From IMG/VR virus record IMGVR_UViG_3300021090_000001, positions 1 to 64,000 of that record: 64,000 nt of DNA; one strand, written 5' to 3'. The DNA comes from a virus. Below, one piece after another: positions 3,992 through 40,608 of this stretch (its first letter is position 1; every line of letters begins with the position of its first letter). Made by a program: the position numbers and the translations under genes. The notes beneath the pieces were generated by a model. It searched no databases and was not told where the DNA came from. It saw only the letters and a list, made by a program, of their open reading frames with translations.

Positions 3992-4028
3992 AAGCATGCG
4001 CTCCCGCCTCGACGCAGTCGATTAACCA

Positions 4029-4367
4029 ATGGCTGCTACAAACGAGCGGGAGATCGGCGAACAGATTGGCGAACTCCGCAGCGACGTGCGCGGTGTCGCC
4101 GGTGATGTGAAGGAACTCCAGCGGACCAATGCAGAGGAACATGGCAAAAATTCTGCCCGGCTGGAGCGGATGGAGGGCAACCTCCGCGCTGCGCTGGAGA
4201 CGAAGGCCGATATCGACTGGGTCCGCGAACACGAGGGTCGCCTGCGTATTGTCGAAGGCAAGTGGTTGGAAGGCAAGGGCGCGGTTCGCCTGATCCAGAT
4301 CGCCAAGGGGATCCTGCTCGCTCTGGTGCCCTTCGCCGTCCTCCTCCTCGCCAAGGCACTCGGATGA
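4029..4367 (+). CDS. Coiled-coil protein with C-terminal transmembrane anchor
   Basis: 112 aa. The C-terminus GILLALVPFAVLLLAKALG is hydrophobic. Confidence 0.6.
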   Translation: MAATNEREIGEQIGELRSDVRGVAGDVKELQRTNAEEHGKNSARLERMEGNLRAALETKADIDWVREHEGRLRIVEGKWLEGKGAVRLIQIAKGILLALVPFAVLLLAKALG

Positions 4368-4376
4368 GAGATCACC

Positions 4377-4802
4377 TTGAATCGGAGCCCGGACGAGAGT
4401 AGCCTCCCGTCCTTGGCTGGCAACGAATTAAGGGAAGAAAAATTGAGCGTCCGCGCGAACTGGTTTGCGGGCGTCACTGGGGAGTCCGACCGACACGACG
4501 ACGATCCTTTTGCCGAGATGACCAGCGCGAGCAGCAGGAAACAACTAACCAGCGAGTCCAGTCGCGAGGAGTTCGACGCGGCCTGGAAACGAATGCTGCA
4601 ATGGGGCAACCGACTAGAGGCGATCGGCGTGGTTTGCCCGCTTCGCTTCACGGGCGAGTGCCACTGTTCCTCCTGCCCGATCTCTCAGGCCAACGACCCT
4701 GACGGCGAGATGTCCTCGCTGTGCAAGCAGGGCATCGAGGAAGAGAAGCTGACCATGTTGGAGAGGGTCAAACAGCTCGATCTAGTTCCCAGTGGCGTCT
4801 GA
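4377..4802 (+). CDS. Hypothetical protein (start uncertain)
   Basis: 141-aa TTG-start ORF in a lower-GC stretch. The C-terminal half has CPLRFTGECHCSSCP. The real start may be an internal ATG. Confidence 0.35.
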   Translation: MNRSPDESSLPSLAGNELREEKLSVRANWFAGVTGESDRHDDDPFAEMTSASSRKQLTSESSREEFDAAWKRMLQWGNRLEAIGVVCPLRFTGECHCSSCPISQANDPDGEMSSLCKQGIEEEKLTMLERVKQLDLVPSGV

Positions 4803-5265
4803 CGGTAGCAAGGGTCCGAAGCCCTACAACCAGCACCAGGCAAGCACCATCTTCTTGAGGGTGCCGATCCAGGATTGGAATGAGGTCAAGCTCGGCTACA
4901 AAACCGAGTTCAAAGGCCAGCCCGGCATGGTGTCGGGGCTGGCCTTTGTCGAACCCCCAACGCCCGTTGTTGCATACTCCTACAGCCGGACCCACGGCTA
5001 TGATCGTGCTCTGATGGTCCTCGAAGACCGATATCAGGTCGAGCTGCTGGGGGCGACGCCGGAGGCGCTGGCGCGCGAAGGGCACCAGAACGTCGCTCAC
5101 TATCGCCGCTACATGGTGCGCCGCGAAGGCAAGCGCTTCAACCCGCTCCTGATGGTCACCGCCTACATGCTGCGGCCGTGGCGCGCCGAGGATCGAGCCC
5201 CCCTAGCCGATCGACTTCTGGAGCATCTGTATGGCGACTTCCTCCCTGAGCCAGCGCGGAGCTGA
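4792..5265 (+). CDS. Hypothetical protein, possibly ASCH-like fold
   Basis: 157 aa. IFLRVPIQDWNEVKLGYKTEFKG resembles the ASCH N-terminal motif. Weak call. Confidence 0.45.
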   Translation: MASDGSKGPKPYNQHQASTIFLRVPIQDWNEVKLGYKTEFKGQPGMVSGLAFVEPPTPVVAYSYSRTHGYDRALMVLEDRYQVELLGATPEALAREGHQNVAHYRRYMVRREGKRFNPLLMVTAYMLRPWRAEDRAPLADRLLEHLYGDFLPEPARS

Positions 5266-5698
5266 ACGCGAGGAGCGTCGTCGCTTCGCCGAGGCGGCCT
5301 GGCGCCAGCGCGCCTGCGCGGCCACCTTCGACGCGCGCGATTGGGTCGCCACCGGCAAGAACTGGGAGGCCCACCACGTTGTCGAGAAACGCTGGTTGCG
5401 CGGCCACAGGCTGCCGCTTTGGAACGAGCGCAACGCCCTACGACTCCGGCCCGACGTGCACCGCAAGCACACCAACCGCAGCGAGATCATCGAGCTTCGC
5501 CTCCTCACCGACGACAACATCGCCTATGCCTTCGAGATCATGGGACCAGCGGCCGAGGAGTATCTGGAGCGGATCTACAGAGGCCCGGACGATAGAGTCC
5601 AACGTGCATCGAAAGTTGCTGTGAAGCAGATGGAAGACGAGATCGCGGCGCTGCCCTCCGGCACCCTATGGCTGCCGCCCCACATGAGGAACGACTGA
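5231..5698 (+). CDS. HNH endonuclease
   Basis: 155 aa. WEAHHVVEKRWL ... NALRLRPDVHRKH is HNH-like. Sits directly upstream of the terminase genes. Confidence 0.8.
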   Translation: MATSSLSQRGAEREERRRFAEAAWRQRACAATFDARDWVATGKNWEAHHVVEKRWLRGHRLPLWNERNALRLRPDVHRKHTNRSEIIELRLLTDDNIAYAFEIMGPAAEEYLERIYRGPDDRVQRASKVAVKQMEDEIAALPSGTLWLPPHMRND

Positions 5699-6375
5699 TG
5701 GCTGAAGGCGAAGCGGCACCGGGACCGACGCAATCTTTTGAAGTGGACCTGCCGGTCGGCGGCGGCAAACTGCATCTCCTTTCGGCCGAGGAGGTCACCA
5801 TGTGGGAGACGGCGGCTACCAACTACCGCTCCGACTATGGGCTGACCAAAACGAACGACCTGGTCCTGCTCGGTGCCCTCCTCACCCAGCAGCTTGCGAT
5901 GTTCCGAGCCCAGCAGCGGATCAACGGGATGGAGCCCGTCCTCGACTCAGAAGGAGTACCGACCGGCAAGTACAGAGTCGTCACCCTGAAAGCGACTGAG
6001 CTGGCCGCCGCGAGCGAGACGGTTCGCAAGGCAGGCAAAGAGATCAGGGAGATCGAGCAGGCCCTGGGGATTGACAAAAAGAACCGCGAGGCCGGTGGGA
6101 CTCAGACCGTTCAGCAGTACGTGACGACCCTGAAGCGGGCGGGGAACGAGTACGGCGTCCATATCTCCAAACGCACGTTGGCATATGAGAGGTTCTGCAT
6201 GGCGCTTCGCACCAAACTCCGCATCCTCCAGAACGCCGACGAGGAGGACAAAGCCTACGAGGGTGTGTCCGGGGAAGCGATCTTGAACTGGTCCCGCGAC
6301 GGGCTGGCGAAGCTGGAAGAAGTGGACAAGGAATTCGCCAAGGAGAAGGGCCGCTTAGTTGTCGGCAAGCTCTAA
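5698..6375 (+). CDS. terS: Putative terminase small subunit
   Basis: ATG at 5698 overlaps the HNH TGA (TGATG); the ORF track begins at 5668. Called by position between HNH and TerL and by its size of about 225 aa. Confidence 0.5.
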   Translation: MAEGEAAPGPTQSFEVDLPVGGGKLHLLSAEEVTMWETAATNYRSDYGLTKTNDLVLLGALLTQQLAMFRAQQRINGMEPVLDSEGVPTGKYRVVTLKATELAAASETVRKAGKEIREIEQALGIDKKNREAGGTQTVQQYVTTLKRAGNEYGVHISKRTLAYERFCMALRTKLRILQNADEEDKAYEGVSGEAILNWSRDGLAKLEEVDKEFAKEKGRLVVGKL

Positions 6376-9109
6376 CCTGGTCCATGTCGAGGGGCATGAC
6401 CCGAAGCTCCACGGTCCCTACGCGGCCGAAGAGGGATGGGTGATCGACGCCGACGACCTCCTACTCATCGCCCTGCTGCGCGACCCGGTGTATGGCCCGG
6501 AGCTGACCTGGCGCGACGCTGCCAATCATGAGTACGCCGGTTGTTACCGGGCGATGGATTACCAGTACCCACTCTTCAGGGTGGAAGACAACTACGCCGG
6601 GTTCGCGTGCGCGCGGTCGGTGGGGAAGGCCCTGGCCGATTATATGCACGTATTGACCCCCAGTGGCTACGTTCGCATGGATGAAATCGAAGTGGGTGAC
6701 TTCGCGATTGGCTCGGACGGTAAACCGACTGAAGTCCTCGGGGTGTACCCTCAGCAGGGAAAGCGGGAGCTGTATCGGGTCGCATTCACCGACGGAACAT
6801 TCGTGGATTGCGATGGCGATCATCTCTGGACGGTTACCTGCGATAGCTGGGAGGCGAGGGGAACTGGACCGAAAACTCTGACGCTGCATGACATCCGTTG
6901 GCGCAAGGCCAGGTTCAAAGTGCCGCTGCCCAGCGGCCCAGTGGAGTTCAAGCCTCTCGCGCCGCCTCATATTGATCCCTGGGCGGCAGGGGCACTGCTA
7001 GGAGATGGCAACCTTACTCCGCGTTCGATGGTGCGCTTCGCGAGTATTGACGACGAGAACGTGGCCCGCTTGCAGGCCGCCCTGCCCGAAGTAGACGTGG
7101 TTCACGATGGCGGCTGTAATTACAGACTTCGGTCAAGCGGCCCTAAGCCGGGGCCATGTGAAGCGCTCACCTGGAGCAGGCTCACCGGCCTGGCGGGGCG
7201 AAGCTCTCTGAGGAAGTTCATTCCAGATGAATTCCTCTGGGGCTCCGTTGCGGTAAGGACCGAGCTATTACGCGGGCTCGTTGACACCGATGGCTACGTG
7301 ACTCATGCGGGGAGCATCGAAGTTAGTACCTCCTCTCCTCAGTTGGCAGAGGACATTAGGCAGTTGGTTCTTTCGCTCGGCGGAAGATGCTCGATCAAGA
7401 TGCGACATACCACCCACGCTGATGCGTATCGAGTCGTATTCCGCATTGATGGGATTTTACCTTGTCACCTGACCCGGAAGAAAACGACCTATGAAGCGCT
7501 TCAGGACCAGAGGACCAGGGCAACCGAGTTTCGCCTGATCGACTCGATACGGCCGATTGGTCCTGGGATGGCGACGTGCATTGAGGTCAACAATACAAAC
7601 GGCCTCTTCATGACCGAGGACATGGTACTAACCCACAACACCGAGAGCATCAAGGCCCGCGCCTTCGCCCACGTCTTCAAGCGGGTCAGCGAGAACATGC
7701 TGATCACGGCGCCAGAGCTGATCCACCTTCTGCCGCTGACCGAAGCGATCGAGGACCGCATCCTCGACACCAGGATCAGCCGCGACTTCCTCGACACGCG
7801 GGGCGGCAAAACCGGGCTCACCCACCGTCCGTTCGGCGCCGAGTTCTACGACGGCACCAGGCTGGTCGGCCGCATCCCGAAGATCACGGGAACCGGCGTC
7901 AAGGGTCAGCACGAGCCGGACATGGTGATTGACGAGGCCCAGGACTACCCCGAGAAAGGGTGGACCGAGATCCACGAGACGGTGATCAAGGATCACACCG
8001 ACAAGGAAGGCAACCCGGATTTCACCTACCACTTCTTTGGAGTCCACTCGGGCGACCGCGACAGCGGCTTCTTCAAGTCCATCAATGATGGTGCCTTCAA
8101 AGTCATCACGATCACCGCGATCCAGCGGCCGGGCTGGTCGAAAGCCGAGAAGGACGCGGCCAAGGCCCGTTACGGCGGCACCCAGAACCCTGACTACCGC
8201 CGCAACATCTATGGCGAGCCCGGCGCCGCTGCCTCGGCGTTCTTCGTCACCGCCCGGCTCATGGCCTGCGTGGACCAGGGACCTCCCGGCAAGCTGCCTA
8301 CCGACTCCGACTACAACACGCTTCAGTACGTCAAACAGCAGCTCCGCGCCGAGGAGGTCGATGAACTTCGTCTGCCGATGAACGAGGTCCTGGACCTGCC
8401 CGATTCCTATGGCAAGCTCTATATCGGCGCCGACCTCGGGCTCACCAACTCCCCCACTGTCGTCTCGGTCTTCTCTCACGAGAAAGTGAAGAACGTCGAA
8501 CGACTGAAGCTAATCCGCCTGTACGAACTCCACCGCTTCCGCACCCGCCAGATCAGGGAGTGCTTCAGCACCCTGGGCTGGCACTTCGGCTCGGCGATGC
8601 AGTCCTTCGGGATCGACATCACTGGGCTCGGCTTCCCGATCTGGCAGGAAATGGAGGACGATGAGAACGTACCTCAGCGCCTGCGCGACGTGAGCCGGGG
8701 CTACTTTTTCAACGCGAAGGTCCCGGTAAACGTGGACAAGGATCACATCACCAAGGACGAAGCTGGGCGGATGCGAGATCAATACGGTGCGTCGGTCGAG
8801 GTCGAGACCGACGAGTGGGGACAGGAGCGGCTGGTGACCAAGATGCCGATGATCGAGGCCAGTACCCGCTATCTCCGCGAGTTCGTGGACTCCGGCTTCC
8901 TGATGCTCCCCTTCGACAAAGCGATCACCACCGACATGCAGGGCGAGACTCAGCAGCGGGTGCGCGCGGTCGGCGATAAAGCGCGCAAGCCTAACGCTTT
9001 CCACATTCTCGACTCCTTCCGGGGCATGGCGATGGGCTTCAAGGCGGGCGAGGTCGAGGAGGCGCTGGCGGTGAGCAAACCGGCGCCGGTCTTCGACATC
9101 GCGCTGTAG
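6359..9109 (+). CDS. terL: Terminase large subunit, interrupted by an intein in the Walker A motif
   Basis: 916-aa ORF. The exteins join as ARSVGK|TESIKA, restoring a GKT P-loop. Position is upstream of the portal gene. Confidence 0.9.
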   Translation: MSASSNLVHVEGHDPKLHGPYAAEEGWVIDADDLLLIALLRDPVYGPELTWRDAANHEYAGCYRAMDYQYPLFRVEDNYAGFACARSVGKALADYMHVLTPSGYVRMDEIEVGDFAIGSDGKPTEVLGVYPQQGKRELYRVAFTDGTFVDCDGDHLWTVTCDSWEARGTGPKTLTLHDIRWRKARFKVPLPSGPVEFKPLAPPHIDPWAAGALLGDGNLTPRSMVRFASIDDENVARLQAALPEVDVVHDGGCNYRLRSSGPKPGPCEALTWSRLTGLAGRSSLRKFIPDEFLWGSVAVRTELLRGLVDTDGYVTHAGSIEVSTSSPQLAEDIRQLVLSLGGRCSIKMRHTTHADAYRVVFRIDGILPCHLTRKKTTYEALQDQRTRATEFRLIDSIRPIGPGMATCIEVNNTNGLFMTEDMVLTHNTESIKARAFAHVFKRVSENMLITAPELIHLLPLTEAIEDRILDTRISRDFLDTRGGKTGLTHRPFGAEFYDGTRLVGRIPKITGTGVKGQHEPDMVIDEAQDYPEKGWTEIHETVIKDHTDKEGNPDFTYHFFGVHSGDRDSGFFKSINDGAFKVITITAIQRPGWSKAEKDAAKARYGGTQNPDYRRNIYGEPGAAASAFFVTARLMACVDQGPPGKLPTDSDYNTLQYVKQQLRAEEVDELRLPMNEVLDLPDSYGKLYIGADLGLTNSPTVVSVFSHEKVKNVERLKLIRLYELHRFRTRQIRECFSTLGWHFGSAMQSFGIDITGLGFPIWQEMEDDENVPQRLRDVSRGYFFNAKVPVNVDKDHITKDEAGRMRDQYGASVEVETDEWGQERLVTKMPMIEASTRYLREFVDSGFLMLPFDKAITTDMQGETQQRVRAVGDKARKPNAFHILDSFRGMAMGFKAGEVEEALAVSKPAPVFDIAL
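6629..7639 (+). mobile_element. Intein (337 aa) with LAGLIDADG homing-endonuclease domain; Ala1, class-3-like W/C/T triplet
   Basis: Begins ALADYMHVL and ends VLTHN followed by Thr+1. LLGDGNL and LRGLVDTDGYV are LAGLIDADG motifs. Triplet residues: W67 (DHLW), C317 (ATCIEV), T335 (LTHN). GC looks lower than in the exteins. Confidence 0.85.
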
Positions 9110-9871: not shown

Positions 9872-12148
9872 GTGCCCGTCGAGGAGATGACCAGCTCTGG
9901 CCTCGTGGTCCCCCAGGGCTACGGCGCCGCCACCGAGGGGCGTGGCCCTTTCGGGGACTCCGACCGTCGCAGTCTCGGCTTCCCGCGCGGCGGCCCGGAG
10001 CGCGGCGGCATCCCGCTGGAGGGCGACGGCGTCGTTGTCAACGAGACGGGTCTGCCCGACGACCTCGTCCTCGACGCGACCCGCGACTACTTCGTGGAGA
10101 ACGCCTCGATGGCCTGGGGGCAGCAGACCAACTTCCAGCTCTACAACCAGCGCCAGGGCTCGATGCTCGCCAGGTCCGACTACAGGACCCCCACGAACGT
10201 CCTGGAGGAGATCAGGCTCGCGCGCAACCTGGCCGAATACGACGACGATGTCGGCGCCGTCATGCGCGAGGTCCTGGCGCTCGGCTTCGGGGAAGGCATG
10301 GAGCATCAGCACGCCGACGAGAAATCGCTGGCGATCTTCGACGCGATCGCTCGCGAAGCCAACCTCGACCACGTCTTCAAAGAGATTTACCGCGAGTACC
10401 TGATCGCCTCGCAGTTCACGACGGCGATGCTGTTCACCCGCCGCGAAATCGAATTCACCCCTCAGGGCGCGAGCGAGGCGGCGGAAACCCTGGTGAATGC
10501 GCCTCTGATCGGAGTCTTCCATTCCGAGAACGTCCGCATCATCGGCAACGACATGTTCGGCACCGGAATCCTGGCCTACGATCCGCCCGACGAGAAACTG
10601 CGCGCATGGCTCGATGAGTACTTCAGCGAGCGCACCACCGTCTCCCGCAAAGCCGAGATGGGCAGGCAGGATCGGGCGACCGCCAACCTCTTCACCGGGG
10701 TCATCTCGATTGACGACTTCGCCAACGTCGAAGACCGGCCGTGGCAATCCTCGATCACCGGCCGTCTCTACCTGCTCAACCCCCGCCTCTGCTTCCGCAC
10801 CAGCATGGCGAAGGGCACCTGGAAGTACCCGAAACCGCTGCTGACCGCCAACTTCGGGCTCCTGGAGGCCAAGCGGCTGCTGAACATCATGGACTACGCC
10901 CTGCTCCAGGGCGGCTCAAACTTCATCGTCGTCGCCAAAAAGGGCACCGACGATCGCCCGGCCCAGCCCGAGGAGATTCAACACCTGGTCGAGGTCGTCC
11001 GGCGGGCCTCGAAGTCCGGCGTCATCGTCGGCGACCACCGGCTCAGCTTCGAAATCATCACCCCCAAACTGGACGAGTTGCTGAACCCCGCCAAGCGCCG
11101 TCTGCTCGGCCGCAAGATCGCGATGAGGATGATGGGCATCGCCGAGCGCGCCGAGGAGTCGGCTTCCAACGGCGAGCAGGCCGACACCGAGGTCCTGGCC
11201 CGAGTGGTGATGGCCGACCGCCGCGACATCCAGCGCCACGTCGAGAACAACATCTACCCCGAAGTGGTGAAAAGGAACAAAACCCTCCTGTCGAAAGGCC
11301 CGGCGGGCATCTGGTTCCCGAAAATCATCCTCCAAGGACTCAACTTCTTCACCGAATTAGTCCTCAAGCTCCGCGACCGTGGTGACATCGCCCGCTCGAC
11401 GGCGGTGGCCGCCGCCGGGTTCAACTGGGAGGCCGAGGTCGCCAAGCGCAAACAGGAGGTCGAATCCGGCGACGATGAGCTGATGGCGCCCGCCTCTGTC
11501 CCGCACTCCTCAGAAGAAGCCGGTCCCCAGGACAACAACGAAGGTCGCCCGAAAGGATCGGGGGACGGCAACAAACCCGACCCGGCCGCGCCGAAACGCA
11601 CCATTACCCGGAACAAAGGCGAGACGGTCAAAGCCTGGTGGGATGAGGAGCTGGACGAAATCGTCCGCGTCGGCGAGGTCACCTACGCGATCCTGGAGGA
11701 GTACGCCGACACCAAAGAAGAGGACGGCTTCCGGGTCAGCGCCCTGGAGCGCGAGGCGATCGAGGCCCGCGAGCCGGTCATTCGCGGCGGCGCGGCGGTG
11801 GTGCCGGTCAACGTCGGCGTCCCGGTCTACTCCGAGCTGCGGGTGGTGAAACTGCGTGAGGGCCTGCGGATGGTGGTCGGCTACCGGCGCGACAACAACG
11901 CGATCGTCGCCGTCGCCCTCGACTTCCGCGAGCCCGAGTTCAGCGTCCACGACGTGGAAGCTCGGACGGCCCGCTGGGGCTTCGGTCTCCCTTCCCTACC
12001 CGCCCCTGAGCTGCCCGAGGAGACGGCCGTGATTCCGATCGTCACGCCGCCCTCCCCGGAGCCCGGCGTGCGTCTCTTGATCCGCGATAGAGACGGCAAC
12101 ATAATTGGCTCAGAGGTCGCAGTAGATAAGCCGCCCGAGGACTCCTGA
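9872..12148 (+). CDS. Portal protein (large, with C-terminal extension)
   Basis: 758 aa. First large gene after terL and upstream of the protease/scaffold and capsid genes. Acidic central region typical of portals. Confidence 0.7.
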   Translation: MPVEEMTSSGLVVPQGYGAATEGRGPFGDSDRRSLGFPRGGPERGGIPLEGDGVVVNETGLPDDLVLDATRDYFVENASMAWGQQTNFQLYNQRQGSMLARSDYRTPTNVLEEIRLARNLAEYDDDVGAVMREVLALGFGEGMEHQHADEKSLAIFDAIAREANLDHVFKEIYREYLIASQFTTAMLFTRREIEFTPQGASEAAETLVNAPLIGVFHSENVRIIGNDMFGTGILAYDPPDEKLRAWLDEYFSERTTVSRKAEMGRQDRATANLFTGVISIDDFANVEDRPWQSSITGRLYLLNPRLCFRTSMAKGTWKYPKPLLTANFGLLEAKRLLNIMDYALLQGGSNFIVVAKKGTDDRPAQPEEIQHLVEVVRRASKSGVIVGDHRLSFEIITPKLDELLNPAKRRLLGRKIAMRMMGIAERAEESASNGEQADTEVLARVVMADRRDIQRHVENNIYPEVVKRNKTLLSKGPAGIWFPKIILQGLNFFTELVLKLRDRGDIARSTAVAAAGFNWEAEVAKRKQEVESGDDELMAPASVPHSSEEAGPQDNNEGRPKGSGDGNKPDPAAPKRTITRNKGETVKAWWDEELDEIVRVGEVTYAILEEYADTKEEDGFRVSALEREAIEAREPVIRGGAAVVPVNVGVPVYSELRVVKLREGLRMVVGYRRDNNAIVAVALDFREPEFSVHDVEARTARWGFGLPSLPAPELPEETAVIPIVTPPSPEPGVRLLIRDRDGNIIGSEVAVDKPPEDS

Positions 12149-12472: not shown

Positions 12473-12847
12473 GTGACCATCACGACGAGCGTTGAAGAAA
12501 TCACCACGGCGGATGCGGTTCCGCACGTCGCGCCGAACAAAGTCAGCGCGAAAGCTACGAAGTCCACTCTCACCTACAAGTTCAAAGTGACTGCCGCCTC
12601 CAAAATCCTGGCCTGGCGCACGCGCTTCAAACCGACCAACCGGAACACCGGCAAACTCCTGGGCAGCCGGGGCATGGTGTGTGGAAGCGGTGATCGCTGC
12701 GGCAGCAAATGGGCCTACACCCTCTCGATGACCTCTGGCACCGAAGTCACCGGGGAAATCAAAGAGACGGAAGTCGCGGCTGAAGCTGACGGCGAATACG
12801 AAGTCAAGGTCTTCGCGATGGGCGAAGCGGACGGATGGAGTAGCTGA
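12473..12847 (+). CDS. Ig-like domain protein (virion decoration candidate)
   Basis: GTG at 12473 directly follows the upstream stop; the ORF track starts at 12428. C-terminal ADGEYEVKVFAMGEADGWS parallels ADGEYTIKVFGQDLAGNWS in the 14897 ORF. Confidence 0.5.
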   Translation: MTITTSVEEITTADAVPHVAPNKVSAKATKSTLTYKFKVTAASKILAWRTRFKPTNRNTGKLLGSRGMVCGSGDRCGSKWAYTLSMTSGTEVTGEIKETEVAAEADGEYEVKVFAMGEADGWSS

Positions 12848-14157
12848 TGGGATATGAACGTACCACCTGGATTGACGATGACGGCTCACTGACCGTTGGC
12901 ACGCCGTTCAGCGCGGCCAAGATGAACAACATCGAGGACGGCATCCTGGCGCGGGGGGCCAAGACGGCGCTCGCCGTAGATGCGATCTCGCAGTCGGCGA
13001 CCTTCACCGGCTCCCTGGTCACCTGGACCCACACATCGAATATCAACGCGAACTCCGCCAACGAATACCCAGGACTCGCCCGCGGGATGATGGTGATAGT
13101 GATCCAGAACGGCACCGCCGAAGACCAGATCGAAAGCGTCGAATTCGGCGGCCAGAAACTGAAAGAGGTTAAAGGCTCGCCCCTGCTACATGCCAGTGGC
13201 GCCAAGGATGGCGCCATTCACGTCTTCTTCCTGGGTGACTCGATCACCCAGGGATCGGCCACTGTCAAAGTGACTCCCAAAGCGAGCAGCACGGATGTCA
13301 AGCGGGCGGTCGCATACACGATCACCGGGGATGGACCGATTGCAGTGCAGACCAACACTCTGGCACAGGAGGGTGAAAAAGCGGGCGAACTACTGCCCAC
13401 CACCGGCATCGACGTGAGATCGGGGAGCCGCGCACTCGTCTTCGCGGGCGTTCTCTACGGCGTTGAAAACGAAAGCGAAATTCCCATCCAGCATGGCACC
13501 GAGGACTTCGGCCACGACTTCGGTACCTCGATCGCGAAGTGGGGCCACCTCGCGCCGGAAATCCAGGGAAACGAAGTCCAGGCATTCATGTACTGGAAAG
13601 TGACCAAAAAAGAACAGCCATATGCCGCCTTCGAGATCGCCGTGCATGTGATGCGTGATGTGGGGGTAGTTACGTCGCTGCCCGCAACCCCGGGGATTGG
13701 CGACAAGTGTCAGTATGTCGCCGACGAAGCCAACGGGATCGTCTGGGATCTGATCTACGACGGCATCGGCGAATACCCCTGGAAGAAGATCGGCGGGCCT
13801 GCCTTATTCAATATGTACTCAGGTACTTTGAGCACCGCGTCGGCGACTCCCCAGACGACTAATGCTCCCAAAATAACCTCACCCCTAGCAATGGAGGCCA
13901 GGATAGGTGTAGGCACTCAGTATCAGGCCAATGGCACCCCTCCAGGACAGGCATGGATACAGCCCTTTGTTAATGCAGTTGGCCAGAGCAATATAGCTAT
14001 CAACTCCACGGCTGGGCTACTGTCATGCTATGTACGTTGCCCTACTATAGCGATAAGCAATGGCGTTGCCATAGAAGCACGATACTATGCTGTTACTACT
14101 GGTACTGCTAGCTTCTCTAATCCTTACATAGAAGTAGACCCAGTGAGGGTAGGCTGA
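12847..14157 (+). CDS. Fibre-like protein with tail-fibre-type N-terminus and low-GC C-terminal domain
   Basis: 436 aa. N-terminus TTWIDDDGSLTVGTPFSAAKMNNIEDGI matches the common prophage tail-fibre N-terminal pattern. The last 350 nt or so are visibly AT-richer. Confidence 0.65.
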   Translation: MGYERTTWIDDDGSLTVGTPFSAAKMNNIEDGILARGAKTALAVDAISQSATFTGSLVTWTHTSNINANSANEYPGLARGMMVIVIQNGTAEDQIESVEFGGQKLKEVKGSPLLHASGAKDGAIHVFFLGDSITQGSATVKVTPKASSTDVKRAVAYTITGDGPIAVQTNTLAQEGEKAGELLPTTGIDVRSGSRALVFAGVLYGVENESEIPIQHGTEDFGHDFGTSIAKWGHLAPEIQGNEVQAFMYWKVTKKEQPYAAFEIAVHVMRDVGVVTSLPATPGIGDKCQYVADEANGIVWDLIYDGIGEYPWKKIGGPALFNMYSGTLSTASATPQTTNAPKITSPLAMEARIGVGTQYQANGTPPGQAWIQPFVNAVGQSNIAINSTAGLLSCYVRCPTIAISNGVAIEARYYAVTTGTASFSNPYIEVDPVRVG

Positions 14158-14870
14158 TGAGCGCCAGCTTCACCCTCACGCTCGATACCCAGACGAGCGT
14201 TGAAGCTTCTATCAACGGCGGCAAAGCCGACACCGAAAGCTCGACGGTCACGCTCGAACTGGTGCTCGATGCCGACGCGGCGCTGGTCAAAGTCTGGGGC
14301 ACCATCAACCCGCTCGACCCGGCCAACGCCGGGTTCGGCGAGACCGAAGAAGGCGCCGAATGGATACCGGCGGCGAGCAGCTTCCTGGTCCACACGACGA
14401 CCAATCCCGGCCAGAAGACGCTGCACGTCCTGGTCCGCGACGACGTTGACAACGAGGCCCAGGACGAAGCCTCGATCACCCTCCAGGGCGAAGGCCCGCC
14501 GATCCCGCCGCCGCCGCGCCCGAGCCAGGCTCCTTCCCCAGCCGGTGGTCCGCCGCATCCCGAGCACCGCCCCGAGCGCCGCCGCATCTCCTCGATCATT
14601 CGCGTCGGCCGCGTCCGCGACCACGCCTCCCTTGAATGCAGACCGAATGCAAATCGCATTCGGGTCCGGGCTCCCAGGGTGAGCGCCGGGATTCTGGTAG
14701 CGCACCATATTGTGCCTGTGCAAGTCCAGACGCTGGTTGAGACTTCTGTCTCGGCGAGGCTCGCTGGAATGCAATCTGCATTCGTCGTGCATCCCAGGGT
14801 CTCCTCTCAGGTTGCCCGCCGCGATGGCGAGGACTTCCTGGCCGTCCTCGACTCCCTCGGCATCCTCTGA
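14157..14870 (+). CDS. Ig-like domain protein, paralog of 14897 ORF (3' half doubtful)
   Basis: The first 115 aa or so align with the 14897 ORF (FxLTLDT, VKxWG, TEExxEW, KTLHxxxRDDVxNE). The remainder is Pro/Arg-rich with weaker GC3 and two hairpins. Confidence 0.5.
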   Translation: MSASFTLTLDTQTSVEASINGGKADTESSTVTLELVLDADAALVKVWGTINPLDPANAGFGETEEGAEWIPAASSFLVHTTTNPGQKTLHVLVRDDVDNEAQDEASITLQGEGPPIPPPPRPSQAPSPAGGPPHPEHRPERRRISSIIRVGRVRDHASLECRPNANRIRVRAPRVSAGILVAHHIVPVQVQTLVETSVSARLAGMQSAFVVHPRVSSQVARRDGEDFLAVLDSLGIL

Positions 14871-14896: not shown

Positions 14897-15577
14897 ATGG
14901 CGAGCTTCTTCCAACTCACCCTCGACACCACCGGGCCTCAGACCCCGACCTTCGCGATCGCTGCGGGCGCCGCCTTCGCCACCAGCCAAACGACGGTAGT
15001 AAATTTCACTACCGCTGACTCGCCGACCACCGGATACCAGGTGAAGATCTGGGGCAACGTGGATGCCGCGTTCAACGCCGCGATCCAGGCCACCGAGGAA
15101 GCCTCGGAATGGATCACCTTCAGCGCTGAAGTCGCAGTCAAGCTATCCAGCGGCGACGGCACCAAGACCCTGCACGCGAAAATCAGGGACGACGTTTGGA
15201 ACGAGACCGCCGAACTCTCCGACACGATCGTCCTCGACACCACGGTCCCGGTCATCACGATCTCGGCCGGGCCGGAACCTACGAAGGTGTCGAAAATCGC
15301 GGGTAAACGGACCGTCACCTTCAGCTTCCAGAGCGACACCAAACTGCAAGCCTGGAAGGTCAAGGTGGTCCCGTCCGGGGCTTCGACGGAGGGCGCGGGC
15401 ACGACGATCCTGACGACCAACGGATCGACCAACATGACCGGCGGCACCCTCGAACCGGCAACCAACGAGGAATGCACGATCGACGGCCGGGATCTCGCTG
15501 TCGCCGCTGGCGCCGATGGCGAATACACCATCAAGGTCTTCGGCCAGGACCTCGCCGGGAACTGGTCGCTCGCTTAG
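14897..15577 (+). CDS. Tandem Ig-like domain protein (virion decoration/adhesin-like)
   Basis: 226 aa with two domains separated by IVLDTTVPVITI. Ends ADGEYTIKVFGQDLAGNWS. Confidence 0.65.
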   Translation: MASFFQLTLDTTGPQTPTFAIAAGAAFATSQTTVVNFTTADSPTTGYQVKIWGNVDAAFNAAIQATEEASEWITFSAEVAVKLSSGDGTKTLHAKIRDDVWNETAELSDTIVLDTTVPVITISAGPEPTKVSKIAGKRTVTFSFQSDTKLQAWKVKVVPSGASTEGAGTTILTTNGSTNMTGGTLEPATNEECTIDGRDLAVAAGADGEYTIKVFGQDLAGNWSLA

Positions 15578-27291: not shown

Positions 27292-27582
27292 GTGTCGGTC
27301 CTCTTCCCCGAGGGAGTCCGCAGCCTCGCCGATATGCCCTACCAGCTCCACGACGCGATCTCGGTCGGGCTCCAGTTCCTGCGGTTCACGGAAATGGAAT
27401 CTGAAGAGTCACCGCCGCGGAAAATCTGGCTCGACTCCGATCAGCTCACCAGTCACTTCAAGGCGGTGGAAAAGCGCCGCGAAGAGAAGTACAACACCGA
27501 CAGCAGTGGTACCTCTAAGGAGATTGAGGACCCCGTGACCAACGATGCAGCACGACTCTTGCTTGGTGACCTGAGGGACTGA
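27292..27582 (+). CDS. T-like -1 frame extension of the tail assembly chaperone (probably made only as a fusion from 27235)
   Basis: Frame is -1 relative to the 26297 ORF. Its stop overlaps the TMP ATG (TGATG). Confidence 0.55.
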   Translation: MSVLFPEGVRSLADMPYQLHDAISVGLQFLRFTEMESEESPPRKIWLDSDQLTSHFKAVEKRREEKYNTDSSGTSKEIEDPVTNDAARLLLGDLRD

Positions 27583-30500
27583 TGCCCGGCTTTGAAGACG
27601 ACTTCGCGAAAGGTGAGGCCGCAGCCGCGCGCCTCGCCGCGCGGATGGCCGAGGCGACCAAACGCTTTGAACAAGTGGCAGAGGTCGAGGCCCGCGATGC
27701 GAAGGTCAGGGAGAAGACCGCCGCAGCCGCGCGCCGCGAGGCTCAGACCGGCCGGACCACGACGCCGGAGTCGGCGCCGAAAGCCCTCAAGGACAACATC
27801 TCCTTCCAGGAACGGGCCAAACAGGCGACCGAGGAACGCATCCGCCTGGAGGCTCGCTATCGGGGCGAGCTGGAGCAGACCGGCGCCGCATCGCGTCGCG
27901 TCGGCTCCGGGCTCATTCCCAGCCCGCTTGCGAGCGCTGGCGGTGCCGGGGGGAGTGGGCGCCTGCCACCCCGGTTCTTCGCCCAGCCGCCACCGGGAGA
28001 ACCGCCCTACGGCGGCCGTGGCCTGCCGCCGGGCTCGATCCCTCCCCAGCTTCCCCTCGGCGGCGGTGGCGGCCCGCGCCAGCTCCTCGCGCGCAACCCC
28101 GAGCATCCCGACGAGCGCATCGTCCGCAACTACCGCGAACGCGCGTCGGCACTGAAGGAGTCCACCGCCGCCGAGGGGGAATACGCGACCAGGGCGCGGG
28201 CCATGCGCGCGGCCGAGGGCGACCTGGGACCGGCGATCGGCCGCACCGCTCAGTTCCAGCGGGCGGCCAACATGGAGTACCAGCGCTTCGGGGCGCTGAG
28301 CAGCGAGTGGATCGGCGCCACGGCGCGCGGGGCCACCACGATCCACGAGCTGGGACGGCAGACGACGGCGACGATCGGCAAGTTCGGCGGCTGGCTCGCG
28401 GCCGGGTCCCTCATCTTCACCGCCCTCGCCGGGGTCCGTGCCATCGGTCATGGCGCGATCGAATCGGCGAGCGGTGTCAACCAGTTGGAGCGGGTAATCA
28501 AAAAAACCTCCTCCATCGACCCGAATTCCGTCCAGAAAAGCTTTCGGGAATCCAGTCAACACTTCAACTTGCCGATCAGCGATGTCACCAATGCTGCCTA
28601 TGAAATGGCCAAGGTCTTTAAGACCCAGGACGAAGCACTCGAAGCATCCAAAGCAGTTCTGTATGCGGTGAAAATCGGCGAGCTTGACACCGCCACCGCC
28701 TCGCGTTACCTGATCGCGACGATCAACGGATTTCACCTACCCGCTGGGAAGTTGGTCGGAGTCTTCGACCAACTCAACAATGCCCAGAACGAATTCGGCA
28801 TCTCGATCAACGATGCATTCGCTGGAATCGCCAAGGCTTCGGGTTCGTTCAACGCCGCCACCACCAAGGGCTCCCCTCTCCAGAAATACCACGAGCTGCT
28901 GGCGCTGATCACGACCGCCCAGAAGGCGACGGGTCAGACTGGGCAGGTAGTGGGTACCGCGATTCAGCGTGCACCGAACTTCCTTCGGCAGGCGAAAAAC
29001 AAAAATATCCTCAAACAGTACGGAATCAATGCGGGCGGCGATCTCAACGACATCATCGTCCAGGCGTTTGAAAAAGCCCAGGGCCTGTCGGGTCACAAAA
29101 TCGCGGATCTCGCCTCGGCGATCTTCGGTCCACAGTACGGAGCGCGGATCGGGACTCCGCTACTCCAGCAGTTCGACCTCTACAAAAAAGTCCTCAGCAA
29201 AACCACCAGCAAAGCCTCGAAAGGCTCGGGCGAGACCGAGCTTCAGACCCAGCTCGGGTCGCTCTCGGAACAGATCAGTCGGATTGGCACGGACCTCGAA
29301 CAGCTCGGTTCCAACCTCGCGGAGGCGGGCTTCTTCGACCTGCTCGGCGCGGGTGTCAAATCACTCGATGAGATGTTGCAATTCGCGAACCACATCCTGG
29401 AGGTCTTCAACAACCTCCCGGACCCACTGAAGCACTCGCTCGCGATTCTGGTTGAGATGAAACTGGCGCTGGGTGCGCTGCGCAAATTCAGTCTTGGTGA
29501 CAATTTCCAGAACTCGACCGCCCGCCGCGTCTTCAACGGCCCGAACGCCGGAGCCCGTAAATACAACGACCTGCTCTTTGAAGAAGAGAGGGAAGTCCGG
29601 CGCAATCTGGAGTCCAACAACCGAAGCCAGATAACCACCGAACGCCGCCTTCCTCCGGCCGCTAGCCGAGTTGGCCAGGAAGAGGCGGTACTGCGGTCAC
29701 TGCAAACCCAAGGTGTTGACCAGAAGGTCCTTCTCAGCCAGGAACGCAATATCGTCGCGGCCAAGCAGCATGAGCAGGGTCTGATCACTAAACAGATCGA
29801 GTCAAGTCAACTTCGACGCGATCTGCTGGTCGAGTTGGATGCGATTGAACGTGACAACGTTGCTCTGTCGGCCAGCCGCAACGACGCAACGGCCGCCCAG
29901 TTGGCGACTGCCCGCAACCGCACTGTCCCTGGCTCCAATGCGAAGGGTGGGATGACCGCGCGCGAGCTGGCGCGGGAAGGAGGCGAAGAATTCCGCAACA
30001 ACGAGACGGTGGTGCCGGTCACCACCGCCGCTAAGGCCGAGCAGGATGCCGCAGCGCGCGCCACGCGGGACTCCAAAGCATCGGCCTCGGCCTTCAAGGG
30101 CGTAGGGGGCAAATGGCGCACATTCGCCCAGACCGAGGGCGGCATCGTCCATCCAATCGAAAGCTTCCGCGCTGCCAGGGGGAATGCAGTGAATGCGATG
30201 GAGGCGACGGCGGGGGGCATCTCTCGGGCCAGAAGCACGCTGCCGACCCTGGGGACCGCCCTCGGCAAAGTGGGGTCGGGGCTCAAAGGGCTCGGTGCCG
30301 GACTATATGGGCTGGTCGGTGGCCCGCTCGGAGCGCTGATTATCGGCGCCTACGCAGCCTTTGAATATGGCGATGACCTCGGCCGGGCGCTTGCCGGAGG
30401 TCAGGAAGAAATTGATGCCGCTTCTGAAATTGAACACGGTGGTGTTAAAAGCACCAAGCGCAAGAAAGACCTCGTCAAACAGTACGAAGACTTTTTCCGC

Positions 30501-37485: not shown

Positions 37486-38300
37486 TGAACTACACGTTCG
37501 TCAACGGCACCATCGAGCAGCAGCAAAGGTGGCTGCAAGCAGCGCATTTGCTGCTGAACTTTCCATTCGCCGCCCTGCCCTACGAGATCGAAGTCGAATT
37601 CAGCACGGCCGGTGTGATCGAAGCTGTCGGTCACAATTCAATAGCGGTGACCCAGGTCACCTATGACTCCATGAGCGCGAAAACGATTGTCAGGAACGAT
37701 GCGCCCGGTTTCGGTCAGGCACTGCGCATGAGTCTGGCCGCCGAAGCCGCCGCCCTGGGCCTCCGCTACAACGCCGACCTGCACTTCAACGAGACGGTGG
37801 TTCACGAGCTTGCCCACGTTGCCTATGGCGCCCTCTCGCACGCGCTGAGAGTGAGGGTGGCAGAAATGTTCGGGGCGAAAACCGACCTCGACGCGGTGAT
37901 CAACGACCAGTCCAAGGACTGGAAGGACCGGGTGGTCGAGGGCATCGCCGACACCTTCAAGGAGGCGTTCCTGCCGCGTCGTCACCGCGTCTTCCCGAAC
38001 CGAACCAACCGCCGTATCTCCTATAGCCGCTACTCTGAATTCAGGCGCTTCTTCCGGGGCGTCGAAGGTGGCGAAGATGGGTTTCAATACACCTATGGCA
38101 GCAGCGCCTTCCGTGCCGATCTGAGCGAGTGGGGGTTGAACGCTCGTCCATACCACAAGTCGAGCCGAGACGACGAAGCCTTCGTATTCTTCGGGGAGAT
38201 CGAAGGTTATGAGAGTTGCTGGGGTGTGGACATGAGCCAGTTTGCCGAGTCCAGCCACCACCCCTTTTCGATCGAACCCGAAGATGAGATCATTAGCTGA
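37485..38300 (+). CDS. Putative zinc metallopeptidase (HExxH) in tail module
   Basis: 271 aa. VVHELAHVAYGALSH contains HExxH. Confidence 0.55.
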   Translation: MNYTFVNGTIEQQQRWLQAAHLLLNFPFAALPYEIEVEFSTAGVIEAVGHNSIAVTQVTYDSMSAKTIVRNDAPGFGQALRMSLAAEAAALGLRYNADLHFNETVVHELAHVAYGALSHALRVRVAEMFGAKTDLDAVINDQSKDWKDRVVEGIADTFKEAFLPRRHRVFPNRTNRRISYSRYSEFRRFFRGVEGGEDGFQYTYGSSAFRADLSEWGLNARPYHKSSRDDEAFVFFGEIEGYESCWGVDMSQFAESSHHPFSIEPEDEIIS

Positions 38301-39037
38301 TGCCCAATGTCATCGTCAAATTCTATGAGAACTTTCGCTTTGAAGATGTGGATACCAGCGGCGTTTTCAGCGGTTCGTTCAGCAACGGCAGCGAGTCGAA
38401 GCTCGCCCACGTCCAAGAGGTGATCAACCAGGCTTTCCACAATCCGAACAATCCCCCTGAAGAACCACCCTGTCTGACTGAATTCGTGGAAGAAAAACTC
38501 TATGACGAAACGCGGACGTGCCAATATTCAAGCAACACCCTCAAAGTCATCGCCAGTGGTGGGACCTGGAAACTGAAAGTCCATCTCGCCGCCGAAGACA
38601 TCGAAACCGGCCCGATCGCCTACAACGCGAATGCCGCTGCGATCGCCGCTGCGATCGGCGGGCTCTATGCGGACCCGGCCGCGTTGGAAATCTTCCGCAT
38701 CACCGAACTGGCCGGTGAAGGTTGCGGTCCCGGCCTGCTGCTCGAAATCGCACCAGAAACATGGATCAGGGTGATCGACATCGGGCCGAGCGAGTGGGAA
38801 TTCAGATATTTTGAAGCTGCCGGGACGCATCTTCCGTCCGGGCTCTCATTCCTCGCCACCGACATCGATCTCGGCGAAGTGATCGTCTCTAAACCTTTCT
38901 ATGACGAAGTCCAGTACACCGTCGAACTGGAAGAAGGCTGCTCGGGAATCGCGGCGCCGAAAGGCAAAACCGAACCCGGCGGGGTTCGCGCGGGCACGCA
39001 TCGAAAGCGCGTGCCGGTCCTTGGCCGCCACGCTTGA
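38300..39037 (+). CDS. Hypothetical tail-module protein
   Basis: 245 aa, coupled start (TGATG). Last plus-strand gene before the recombination module. Confidence 0.55.
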   Translation: MPNVIVKFYENFRFEDVDTSGVFSGSFSNGSESKLAHVQEVINQAFHNPNNPPEEPPCLTEFVEEKLYDETRTCQYSSNTLKVIASGGTWKLKVHLAAEDIETGPIAYNANAAAIAAAIGGLYADPAALEIFRITELAGEGCGPGLLLEIAPETWIRVIDIGPSEWEFRYFEAAGTHLPSGLSFLATDIDLGEVIVSKPFYDEVQYTVELEEGCSGIAAPKGKTEPGGVRAGTHRKRVPVLGRHA

Positions 39038-40508: not shown

Positions 40509-40539
40509 AAAGGACCCGCCGGGGAGGGGCGGGTCCTTT
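40509..40539 (+). terminator. Rho-independent terminator after rusA
   Basis: 12-bp stem AAAGGACCCGCC / GGCGGGTCCTTT, whose 3' arm ends in TTT. Confidence 0.65.
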
Positions 40540-40567
40540 CGAGGCTGGCGACGGGCGGGGAGAAATA

Positions 40568-40588
40568 CCGACGCTCGTTCAAAGGTAG
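40568..40588 (+). promoter_or_regulatory. Degenerate motif copy 10 (CCGACGCTCGTtcaaaggTAG)
   Basis: The first 11 nt are identical to copy 7, but the -10-like part is diverged. Lies 21 nt upstream of the ATG at 40609. Confidence 0.3.
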
Positions 40589-40608
40589 CAGTTTCACCGG
40601 AGGGTGCA

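Follow-up and report, generated by a model that had tools for sequence, protein, structure and literature searches.

The features that define class 3 inteins are Ala at position 1, a block B H-x-W motif, a block F Cys and a terminal T-H-N followed by a +1 nucleophile (PMC2807308), and the complete set is present in the phage gene described here. Phage terminases and helicases are known to carry such inteins in their P-loops, a description from 2010 having been followed by surveys in 2016 and 2025, and our finding leaves the knowledge of inteins unchanged; Tori et al. 2010 had already observed that terminase large subunits can contain class 3 inteins, for the most part within the P-loop (PMC2807308). 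The class 3 prototype, the phage-borne DnaB intein of mycobacteriophage Bethlehem, has 341 residues, an endonuclease domain, the WCT triplet (with Cys320 and Thr339), Asn341 and Thr at +1, which resembles our intein in size and motifs, but it differs in Pro1, Gln at −1 and its DnaB host, a comparison made by published description only (PMC2807308). The solved inteins MchDnaB1 (6RIX/6RIY) and MsmDnaB1 (6BS8) share with ours Ala1, His65, Trp67, the block F Cys, the T-H-N end and a P-loop insertion after SVGK; the native N-extein of MchDnaB1 ends in SVGK, and its numbering of His65 and Trp67 is equal. By contrast, both are mini-inteins of ~140 residues without an endonuclease, located in a bacterial replicative helicase and followed by Ser+1, whereas the intein described here has 337 residues, a full LAGLIDADG domain, a phage terminase as its probable host and Thr at +1.

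For terminases, Kelley et al. 2016 (PMC5050341) describe a TerL family whose ATPase domain is interrupted at several sites; of these, b, c, e, f and g (but not a) were assayed and shown to splice, and endonuclease activity was shown for b and c. In that study, the mycobacteriophage TerL1-a/b inteins occupy the site found here, a 'classic' P-loop insertion that separates the invariant Lys of the TerL Walker A motif from its nucleophilic Thr, and their host is a Terminase_1 protein, whereas the terminase studied here has no Pfam or PHROG match. Three further phage inteins, with 26–38% identity to ours, all keep H-x-W and the block F Cys in different hosts and phage groups: those of the gp175 helicase of Mycobacterium phage Alice (GSGK/AEP...LTHN/S, slashes marking splice junctions), the 'TerL' of Salmonella phage SPLA5c (GRGK/ALA...VTHN/T) and the TerL of Gordonia phage Gmala1 (GVGK/QFD...VSHN/S), the last of which has, unlike ours, Gln1 and Ser at G5. 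PI-SceI (the VMA1 intein), TliVMA and PI-PfuI follow the same two-domain plan, with a LAGLIDADG endonuclease inside a HINT domain, but are class 1 inteins (Cys1, block F Asp) of eukaryotic or archaeal hosts and contain an extra DNA-recognition region.

Here we analysed the first 64 kb (the window) of a ~88-kb phage genome, identified as phage by a tape-measure protein, a DnaB and a PD-(D/E)XK nuclease; PHROG and Pfam scans of the genes around this locus were almost empty. Sequence features and structure prediction together indicate that a 916-residue reading frame is very probably the precursor of a large terminase interrupted in its Walker A P-loop by a mobile, self-splicing class 3 intein that is also a homing endonuclease.

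An intein with class 3 sequence features and a LAGLIDADG domain

Residues 91–427 of the reading frame form an in-frame insert of 337 residues with the junctions ACARSVGK/ALADYMHV and MVLTHN/TESIKARAF. Its removal restores ARSVGKTES, placing the insertion point between Lys90 and the Thr of the Walker A motif (ARSVGK/TES), and because neither junction repeats a residue, the insert boundaries are unambiguous. Thr+1 would thereby be the predicted splice nucleophile and the Walker A Thr at once. The predicted masses of the precursor, the spliced terminase and the intein are 102, 65.2 and 37.2 kDa, the latter two in agreement with an earlier sequence-only reading of this DNA (~64 and ~37 kDa). In the N-extein, the conserved DYQYPLF stretch with its invariant Gln is a possible adenine-binding Q motif. 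The features are collected in Table 1.

Table 1. Features of the interrupted terminase gene; nucleotide positions refer to the window
Feature	Position (nt)	Strand	Remarks
TerL-precursor reading frame	6359..9109	+	916 aa, TTG start
N-extein, TerL residues 1–90	6359..6628	+	Ends with the first Walker A half, ARSVGK (6611–6628)
DYQYPLF stretch, conserved, invariant Gln	6557–6577	+	Within N-extein
Intein, 337 aa, class 3 sequence features	6629..7639	+	Missing in most homologues; homology to 6rix/6bs8; AF2 and Foldseek
N-terminal splicing (HINT) half, blocks A and B	6629..6940 (limit approximate)	+	AF2 secondary structure; residues 1–69 align to MchDnaB1 1–69; H-x-W kept by 15 of 16 family members
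Key codons of N-terminal half	Ala1 6629–6631; His65 6821–6823; Trp67 6827–6829	+	
LAGLIDADG homing-endonuclease domain	6941..7528 (limits approximate)	+	Pfam, family alignment, Foldseek
Endonuclease motif 1, AAGALLGDG (Asp126)	6983–7009	+	
Endonuclease KFIP motif	7214–7225	+	
Endonuclease motif 2, LRGLVDTDG (Asp221)	7268–7294	+	
C-terminal splicing half, blocks F and G	7529..7639	+	Cys317 invariant in family
Key codons of C-terminal half	Cys317 7577–7579; Thr335-His336-Asn337 7631–7639	+	
C-extein of TerL, stop codon included	7640..9109	+	Starts with Thr+1 (7640–7642); both TerL domains covered by fold match
Walker B, MVIDEAQD	7922–7945	+	Followed by RNase-H-like nuclease domain

The insert begins with Ala and so has none of Cys, Ser or Thr at position 1, in line with the class 3 definition of Tori et al. 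2010. It contains DHLW at residues 64–67 (His65, Trp67), ATCIEV (Cys317) and LTHN (Thr335, His336, Asn337), which together provide a complete WCT triplet of W67 (B12, two residues past His65), C317 (F4) and T335 (G5), and it ends in the His-Asn typical of inteins, with Thr at +1, a residue that also suits class 3. A phmmer search of the PDB returned the class 3 inteins 6rix (2.5e-11) and 6bs8 (4.6e-9) as the best sequence matches, in an alignment that begins at residue 1 and pairs C317 with the catalytic Cys of MchDnaB1 (VRCVEV). The block F/G segment of the 6rix alignment is weak by itself (2.7 bits); the assignment draws its support from the family alignment and from the fold. A profile built from 14 relatives matched 6riz, 6rix and 6bs8 at 1e-22 to 6e-21. 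Among 15 intein relatives, hosted by P-loop NTPases that are mostly interrupted at GK/T, the block F Cys is present in all, while a non-nucleophilic residue 1 (Ala or Pro), H-x-W and Thr at G5 each occur in 14.

The AF2 model of the intein (pLDDT 92.3, pTM 0.90) resembles PI-SceI in a Foldseek search (1e-17, TM 0.76) and gives target TM values of 0.72–0.81 with 6rix and 6bs8; sequence and profile matches, the model and Foldseek all support a HINT fold with blocks A, B, F and G. The junctions and the W/C/T triplet proposed from the letters of the DNA were thus borne out at the positions proposed, and the identification of the insert as a class 3 intein with a LAGLIDADG endonuclease is supported at the level of sequence and predicted structure. 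A tblastn search with the intein found no second intein within the 64 kb.

The two endonuclease motifs named in the sequence-only reading, LLGDGNL (starting at intein residue 123) and LRGLVDTDGYV (residue 214), lie in a domain matched by Pfam LAGLIDADG_3 (PF14528, E 2.7e-10) and Hom_end (PF05204, E 2.9e-6). Both motifs keep their acidic residue, and the Pfam and Foldseek matches indicate the alpha-beta-beta-alpha-beta-beta-alpha fold of the family, the structural matches of the endonuclease domain being PI-SceI, TliVMA, PI-PfuI and I-DmoI. The family alignment shows no variation at K196, P199, D221 or G222 and at least 90% conservation at D126.

The interrupted protein as a probable large terminase

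The spliced extein has no Pfam match at E≤1, no significant PHROG match and no PDB profile match, and it lies outside the curated terminase families (Pfam Terminase_1/3/6, GpA, PHROG TerL); the TerL PHROG matches of the full reading frame originate in the intein, not in the extein. With these sequence resources silent, we drew the TerL identity from the predicted fold. In a Foldseek search with the model of the spliced protein, every one of the top 29 matches was a large-terminase structure, and in many cases the alignment spanned most of that structure, with T4 gp17 (3.8e-11) followed by D6E, Sf6, HK97 and P74-26. Model confidence is moderate overall (pLDDT 67, pTM 0.48) and reaches a pLDDT of ~90 in the nuclease core; the predicted architecture is an N-terminal ASCE ATPase joined to a C-terminal RNase-H-like nuclease. 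The sequence contains a terminase-type Walker A motif ([S/A]-R-x-x-G-K-[T/S], here ARSVGKT; SRQLGKT in T4 gp17) and a Walker B motif (hhhhDE, here MVIDEAQD), with key residues invariant in 43 homologues. Taken together, these data support the proposed assignment of the host protein as a large terminase, at the level of a structural model, and no second TerL was found within the 64 kb of the ~88-kb genome.

We found 766 homologues of this terminase, and among the 120 listed, 114 are 498–610 residues long and most have no insert. The closest of those listed (P0002) is 86% identical, has a length of exactly 579 residues and reads an uninterrupted ACARSVGKTESIKARAF, as do P0003, P0005, P0009 and P0011. 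No substitution occurs at R86, G89, K90, T91, E92 or S93 across 43 homologues that lack the intein. The proposed insertion point is thus matched by natural intein-less alleles, which read ARSVGKTES, and the counter-reading in which the insert is a normal TerL domain present in all homologues fails, the insert being missing from most of them while the Walker A motif is invariant. At the nucleotide level, blastn aligned positions 4404–6631 of the window with 4028–6273 of the related locus L002, and 7636–9105 with 6267–7736, so that the gene differs from that locus by a single clean insertion of ~1 kb (1,011 bp).

Distribution, age and mobility of the intein

An intein at this site occurs in 2 of the 120 listed protein clusters. 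Across IMG/VR loci, two distant relatives, L083 and L078, carry it, and every close relative (at least 46% identical) lacks it. The TerL P0074 has a sister intein at this position with 56% identity to ours, compared with 65% identity between the exteins, and the 90%-identity protein cluster of this sister TerL also contains an intein-less member (P0138) with 83% nucleotide identity to the P0074 exteins. Presence of the intein among close relatives is sporadic, with intein-less alleles adjoining each intein-bearing lineage. The identical 916-residue protein was recovered in independent JGI and Logan/ENA assemblies, on contigs of ~87.8 kb, which argues for a replicating phage; a megablast search of 50,697 phage records with the entire gene gave no match.

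The sequence-only reading had taken the lower GC and codon usage of the insert as a sign of recent invasion. The compositional step within one reading frame is real, with a GC3 of 0.656 in the insert against 0.811 in the N-extein and 0.863 in the C-extein, and with sliding-window values of 0.62–0.67 inside the insert and 0.83–0.89 after it. A GC3 of ~0.67 is also seen in two other genes of the window, and the insert is therefore low for the TerL gene yet within the range of the phage. As a firm conclusion, recent invasion was rejected and is not demonstrated: the sister intein has the same low GC3 and is more diverged than the exteins that surround it.

Co-conversion was assessed by sliding-window scanning of a codon alignment that comprised two alleles with the intein and two without it, and no tract was visible in this four-allele scan. 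Near the junction, similarity rises to the other intein-bearing allele (50/60) but equally to an intein-less allele (49/60), reflecting P-loop conservation rather than a homing footprint. In this alignment, Gly89 is encoded by GGG where the intein is present and by GGC in the two alleles that lack it; as an intein-linked marker it was rejected, since a further intein-less locus (L023) also has GGG. Candidate intein-less target sites were identified in L002 and L023, the naive site of L023 being identical over 31 bp and that of P0002/L002 differing by several synonymous changes.

These observations bear on an alternative in which the intein splices but its endonuclease is dead, leaving a fixed passenger that has lost mobility. 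The larger divergence of the sister inteins than of their exteins would fit such long vertical residence, and the lack of a visible co-conversion tract and the rarity of the same-site intein among the listed clusters and close relatives are also compatible with it. Against this, the intein retains D126, D221, the flanking glycines and the lysine of KFIP, all of them conserved in the family, the domain is modelled at high confidence, the intein-less alleles beside each intein-bearing lineage form a pattern of ongoing gain and loss, and the GC3 of the intein has not been ameliorated. We consider a dead endonuclease unlikely, though worth keeping in view, and favour a mobile intein with a functional endonuclease.

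Proposed splicing and homing route

We infer splicing, the class 3 route and endonuclease activity as follows. The intein would fold after translation, and Cys317 of block F, helped by His65, Trp67 and Thr335, would attack the peptide bond between Lys(−1) and Ala1 to give a thioester-branched intermediate. Cyclisation of Asn337 would free the 37-kDa intein, and an O-to-N shift would then yield TerL of 65 kDa with its GKT loop intact; before splicing, the ATPase could not assemble, and hence no packaging motor would form. The free intein may act as a LAGLIDADG homing endonuclease, expected to cut intein-less alleles at approximately the junction of CGGTCGGTGGGGAAG and ACCGAGAGCATCAAGG during co-infection, after which repair would copy the intein into the cut allele.

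A dependence of packaging on splicing led the sequence-only reading to suggest that packaging may be condition-sensitive, which we regard as speculation by analogy with MsmDnaB1. In its developed form, the intein would be a post-translational packaging checkpoint, with oxidation of Cys317 or binding of zinc or another metal to it under host stress reversibly blocking splicing and pausing packaging. In MsmDnaB1, a related class 3 intein that also lies in a P-loop, H2O2 causes reversible inhibition via a disulfide at the catalytic Cys, and zinc is likewise reported to inhibit mycobacterial DnaB splicing reversibly (PMC6195587, PMC7360933). Six further cysteines are present in our intein (C61, C71, C163, C177, C254 and C279), and a Cys occupies position 61 in 9 of the 15 relatives. 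However, the partner Cys48 of MsmDnaB1 is at a non-conserved position, and the sporadic distribution and intact homing endonuclease suffice to explain persistence as a selfish element; such a switch is unlikely. If it did exist, active terminase and virion maturation would be confined to the reduced cell. A more modest reading is that at least three sites in the TerL family bear class-3-type inteins, which, if true, would make the family a natural system for studies of intein site-switching.

Splicing by another route is very improbable, for instance one in which Thr+1 attacks the N-terminal peptide bond directly, as in a class 2-like mechanism, and Cys317 is structural. The mechanism is indeed deduced from sequence, and an Ala start is common to class 2 inteins, but class 2 (KlbA) inteins have no WCT triplet and rely on Cys+1, and the nearest solved relatives belong to class 3 and have a Cys-His-Thr triad at these same positions. 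The class 3 prototype, moreover, has an absolute requirement for the block F Cys, while Thr+1 is dispensable for N-cleavage (PMC2807308). A degenerate, non-splicing intein, with TerL a pseudogene of a defective phage or another terminase encoded in the ~24 kb of the genome beyond the window, is hardly credible, given that H65, W67, C317, T335, H336, N337 and T+1 are all intact and conserved, that the 2.75-kb reading frame is open, that the C-extein GC3 of 0.86 and invariant residues mark a gene under selection, and that the independent assemblies carry the same protein and the window no second TerL.

The preferred reading, a mobile self-splicing class 3 intein in a terminase P-loop, has consequences for annotation. 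'Terminase' PHROG matches on the reading frame reflect the intein rather than the host protein, and the terminase of this family escapes all current sequence models. The locus provides a class 3 intein whose limits are fully defined and whose homing endonuclease is apparently intact, from a large family of high-GC metagenomic phages with genomes of ~85 kb, and because partner alleles that lack the intein are known, as is a naive target of 31 bp, both splicing and homing are directly testable in this family.

An intein-interrupted large terminase

The insert comprises 337 aa, residues 91–427 of the 916-aa ORF (nt 6629–7639 exactly), and lies between the junctions ...GFACARSVGK↓ALADYMHVLTPSGY... 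and ...EDMVLTHN↓TESIKARAF... (arrows mark splice junctions). Deleting it leaves a 579-aa protein with ARSVGKTES; this spliced product has a computed mass of 65.2 kDa, against 37.2 kDa for the insert. Each motif reported in the sequence-only reading was found at its place in the ORF. That reading would have given way had the insert been a normal TerL domain present in all homologues, and both intein-less homologues and a clean insertion at the DNA level argue against this. A search with the spliced sequence retrieved 766 homologues, 114 of the 120 listed being 498–610 aa long; the closest among those listed, P0002, is exactly 579 aa and 86% identical, and ACARSVGKTESIKARAF is uninterrupted in the metagenomic TerL proteins P0002, P0003, P0005, P0009 and P0011. 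R86, G89, K90, T91, E92 and S93 (spliced numbering) do not vary across 43 aligned intein-less members. The window is collinear with L002, the contig of P0002 (window 4404–6631 with L002 4028–6273, and window 7636–9105 with L002 6267–7736), the sole large difference being a single clean ~1-kb (1,011-bp) insertion. Because neither junction has a repeated residue, the insert boundaries are unambiguous.

The predicted fold identifies the host protein as a large terminase. The spliced extein returned no Pfam match at E ≤ 1, no significant PHROG match and no PDB profile match, and the 'terminase large subunit' PHROG matches on the ORF (phrog_19299, 36964 and 15) fall in the intein, not the terminase; these profiles evidently include intein-containing members, which is a pitfall for automatic annotation. 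The identification as TerL made from sequence was borne out by an AlphaFold2 model of the spliced protein built with 43 homologues (overall pLDDT 67, rising to about 90 in the C-terminal core), for which the top 29 Foldseek matches were all large terminases, many over most of the length, led by T4 gp17 (3.8e-11) and followed by D6E, Sf6 gp2, HK97 and P74-26. The motifs fit as well: ARSVGKT has the look of a terminase-type Walker A, conserved Arg included (SRQLGKT in T4 gp17), with Walker B reading MVIDEAQD and an invariant Gln ~20 residues upstream of Walker A. An intein-less GenBank relative from the Caudovirales phage GX15bay, annotated as terminase, is 33% identical (E 1e-82) and reads CARSIGKSLS. 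No second terminase was found in the 64-kb window. The upstream 235-aa ORF and TerL share 17 nt at the TTG start, an overlap suggestive of translational coupling. This ORF occupies the usual position of the small terminase subunit and had no Pfam or PHROG match.

Features of the intein, its host gene and the surrounding phage genome
Feature	Position (nt) or motif	Strand	Basis
Upstream ORF, 235 aa	5668..6375	+	
TerL precursor ORF, 916 aa, TTG start	6359..9109	+	ORF call
Splicing residues H65 and W67	in DHLW, block B	+	sequence
LAGLIDADG-type motif 1, AAGALLGDG	6983-7009	+	sequence
LAGLIDADG-type motif 2, LRGLVDTDG	7268-7294	+	sequence
Block F Cys C317	in ATCIEV	+	sequence
T335-H336-N337	intein C-terminal end (LTHN)	+	sequence
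Empty TG↓TGVKG site, KITGTGVKG	7880-7906		
Empty VKG↓QHE site	~7895-7906		
Empty HE↓T site, EIHETVIK	7967-7990		
758-aa protein	9872-12148	+	
Equivalent of 'PhoH' intein junction, LLQGG↓SNFIVV	10915/10916		
Low-GC3 gene	12847-14157	+	
Paralogue, phrog_10898	14157-14870	+	
Paralogue, phrog_10898	14897-15577	+	
Tape-measure protein	27582-32480		domain scan
Low-GC3 gene	38300-39037	+	
PD-(D/E)XK (Cas4/RecB-like) nuclease	40309-41775	+	domain scan
DnaB-like helicase, 708 aa, ~250 extra N-terminal residues	42551-44677	+	domain scan

Class 3 features and predicted fold

Pfam detected LAGLIDADG_3 (2.7e-10) and Hom_end (2.9e-6) on the ORF, and the best solved sequence relatives were the class 3 inteins MchDnaB1 (6rix, 2.5e-11; 6riy) and MsmDnaB1 (6bs8, 4.6e-9), whose alignments run from residue 1 to block B, while a short C-terminal segment places C317 on the catalytic Cys (VRCVEV) of class 3 relatives and LTHN on PTHN. 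With a profile of this intein and 13 relatives, the class 3 structure matches strengthened to 1e-22 to 6e-21, and the same profile also matched PI-SceI across its endonuclease and C-terminal parts. The definition of class 3 requires a residue 1 that is not a nucleophile, the triplet Trp/Cys/Thr at B12/F4/G5, and a +1 residue that is Thr or Ser; known hosts are DnaB, RecG, SNF2 and the large terminase subunits of phages, with most insertions in P-loops (Tori et al. 2010, PMC2807308). All four of these sequence criteria hold for the TerL insert, with Ala1, the triplet and Thr+1 present. MchDnaB1, with catalytic His65, Trp67, Cys124 and Thr143, also has SVGK as its native N-extein (PMC7664689), the same as the TerL intein.

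These positions are conserved in a family alignment of 15 metagenomic relatives, where the block F Cys is found in all 15 and Ala or Pro at position 1, H-x-W, the G5 Thr and Thr+1 in 14 each (+1 is Ser in one). Host proteins of these relatives are PhoH-like, DnaB, UvrD-like or Terminase_6, with GK↓T the usual insertion point. A similar pattern is seen in the annotated Mycobacterium phage Alice gp175 helicase, Salmonella phage SPLA5c 'TerL' and Gordonia phage Gmala1 TerL; the Alice intein is assigned to class 3 in a 2025 bioRxiv survey.

An AlphaFold2 model of the intein built from the family alignment (pLDDT 92.3, pTM 0.90) most closely matched bifunctional intein/endonucleases in the PDB (Foldseek; TliVMA 3e-18, PI-SceI 1e-17 with TM 0.76, and PI-PfuI) and next the class 3 mini-inteins 6rix, 6riy and 6bs8 (target TM 0.72–0.81), free LAGLIDADG enzymes, among them I-DmoI, ranking below these. 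The endonuclease is likely active, because its domain retains the motif aspartates D126 and D221 and the invariant KFIP lysine K196. Taking these observations together, the TerL insert is by sequence a member of the class 3 intein family, and its carrying every class 3 feature readable from sequence supports the view that it behaves as a class 3 LAGLIDADG intein; the original observation is thereby confirmed and its interpretation supported.

Distribution, composition and related elements

Among the listed homologues, only one other protein cluster, P0074, has an intein at this site (SVGK↓ALADGSP...LTHN↓TESIKAK), the two inteins being 56% and their exteins 65% identical; all other intein relatives are ≤38% identical. 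Intein-less alleles lie near both: P0002 near the present lineage, by the extein identity of 86%, and P0138, in the 90%-identity protein cluster of P0074, with 83% nucleotide identity to the P0074 exteins. In the IMG/VR phage L023 the site is uninterrupted, with 31 bp identical to the spliced junction (CGGTCGGTGGGGAAG↓ACCGAGAGCATCAAGG), and two distant TerL relatives carry class-3-type inteins at the same GK↓T, L083 (ARAVGK↓ALRAT...VTHN↓TQS; 33% extein identity) and L078. This sporadic presence is the pattern expected of a homing element.

The lower GC ascribed to the insert is real, GC3 stepping from 0.62–0.67 within the intein to 0.83–0.89 after it. The recent invasion drawn from it found no such backing: sliding windows over two intein-bearing and two intein-less alleles revealed no co-conversion signal beyond general P-loop conservation, and a GGG versus GGC difference at the Gly89 codon, considered as a homing mark, is contradicted by L023. 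Because the diverged sister intein of P0074 is also low in GC3 (0.70 versus 0.86), one inference is repeated arrival of the intein from a lower-GC pool; alternatively, low GC3 may reflect different constraints on the intein. GC3 is equally low (~0.67) in two further genes of the window (window mean 0.78, neighbouring genes up to 0.87), and these may also have been acquired recently.

The window is a phage genome, and tblastn across it, including the PD-(D/E)XK nuclease, revealed no second copy of the intein. The P-loop of its DnaB-like helicase (GEPGSGKS), a classic class 3 target in relatives, is intact and apparently uninterrupted. Two adjacent paralogous genes, 35% identical over ~135 aa, match a PHROG of unknown function. 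On L007, the contig of intein-less P0138, TerL is immediately preceded by a free-standing HNH_3 endonuclease gene (nt 196–504, 102 aa) that overlaps the TerL start, a homing-type element of another kind at the TerL locus of a relative.

Two further TerL sites, both empty in the window, carry class-3-type inteins in relatives. HE↓T is filled in P0036, P0075 and P0108, whose inteins begin with Ala or Pro and have the WCT triplet, and TG↓TGVKG is filled in P0114 by a variant with Pro1, H-R-F in place of H-x-W and PVFN in place of THN. A ~1-kb insert in L032 lies at ~residue 300, at the nuclease-domain start. Two distant IMG/VR TerL relatives, L086 (~nt 462–1501) and L087 (~nt 1980–2947), each have a class-1-like intein of ~346 aa (Ser1, block B S-x-x-H, block F Asp, two LAGLIDADG motifs, SHN end) that separates GVKG from QHP immediately ahead of Walker B. 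Its boundaries are firm, because the +1-equivalent position in 78 uninterrupted relatives holds Q/M/L/I/S/T/V ahead of an invariant His; the +1 residue is Gln in both (SHN↓QHP), without a nucleophile, so splicing by the canonical route should not be possible. The alternatives are aminolysis of the BIL-A type, cleavage alone or a dead gene. Downstream of TerL, the 758-aa protein is an intein-less orthologue of the GX15bay 'PhoH' CDS (L001 6163–8985; 29% identity once the intein is removed), whose 347-aa intein has the WCT triplet but Ser1 (HLIGG↓SLRLDQ...VTHN↓TNFIVV) and shares 36% identity with the TerL intein. 'PhoH' itself is probably an annotation artefact caused by the intein.

Reports of terminase inteins of class 3 go back to 2010 (PMC2807308), with a further survey in 2025 (bioRxiv), and the insertion site seen here is the 'classic' P-loop site known from mycobacteriophage TerL1-a (PMC5050341). 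The novelty is modest: a diverged member with one sister above the 38% level, an uncharacterised terminase family as host, and class-3-type inteins at two further sites in that family.

Proposed splicing route and terminase function

Here we observed the anatomy, the homology and the conservation of every catalytic position, and the splicing route is taken from the class 3 literature. By this route, Cys317 would attack the Lys(−1)–Ala1 bond, the N-extein would be transferred to Thr+1, Asn337 would cyclise, and re-formation of the peptide bond would complete GK-T. Thr+1 would serve twice, as the nucleophile for splicing and as the Walker A residue expected to coordinate Mg2+, the same double role as that of the +1 residue in MsmDnaB1. 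By analogy with MsmDnaB1, redox-sensitive, conditional splicing is possible. The precursor, with its interrupted P-loop, should be without ATPase activity, so that packaging would depend on splicing.
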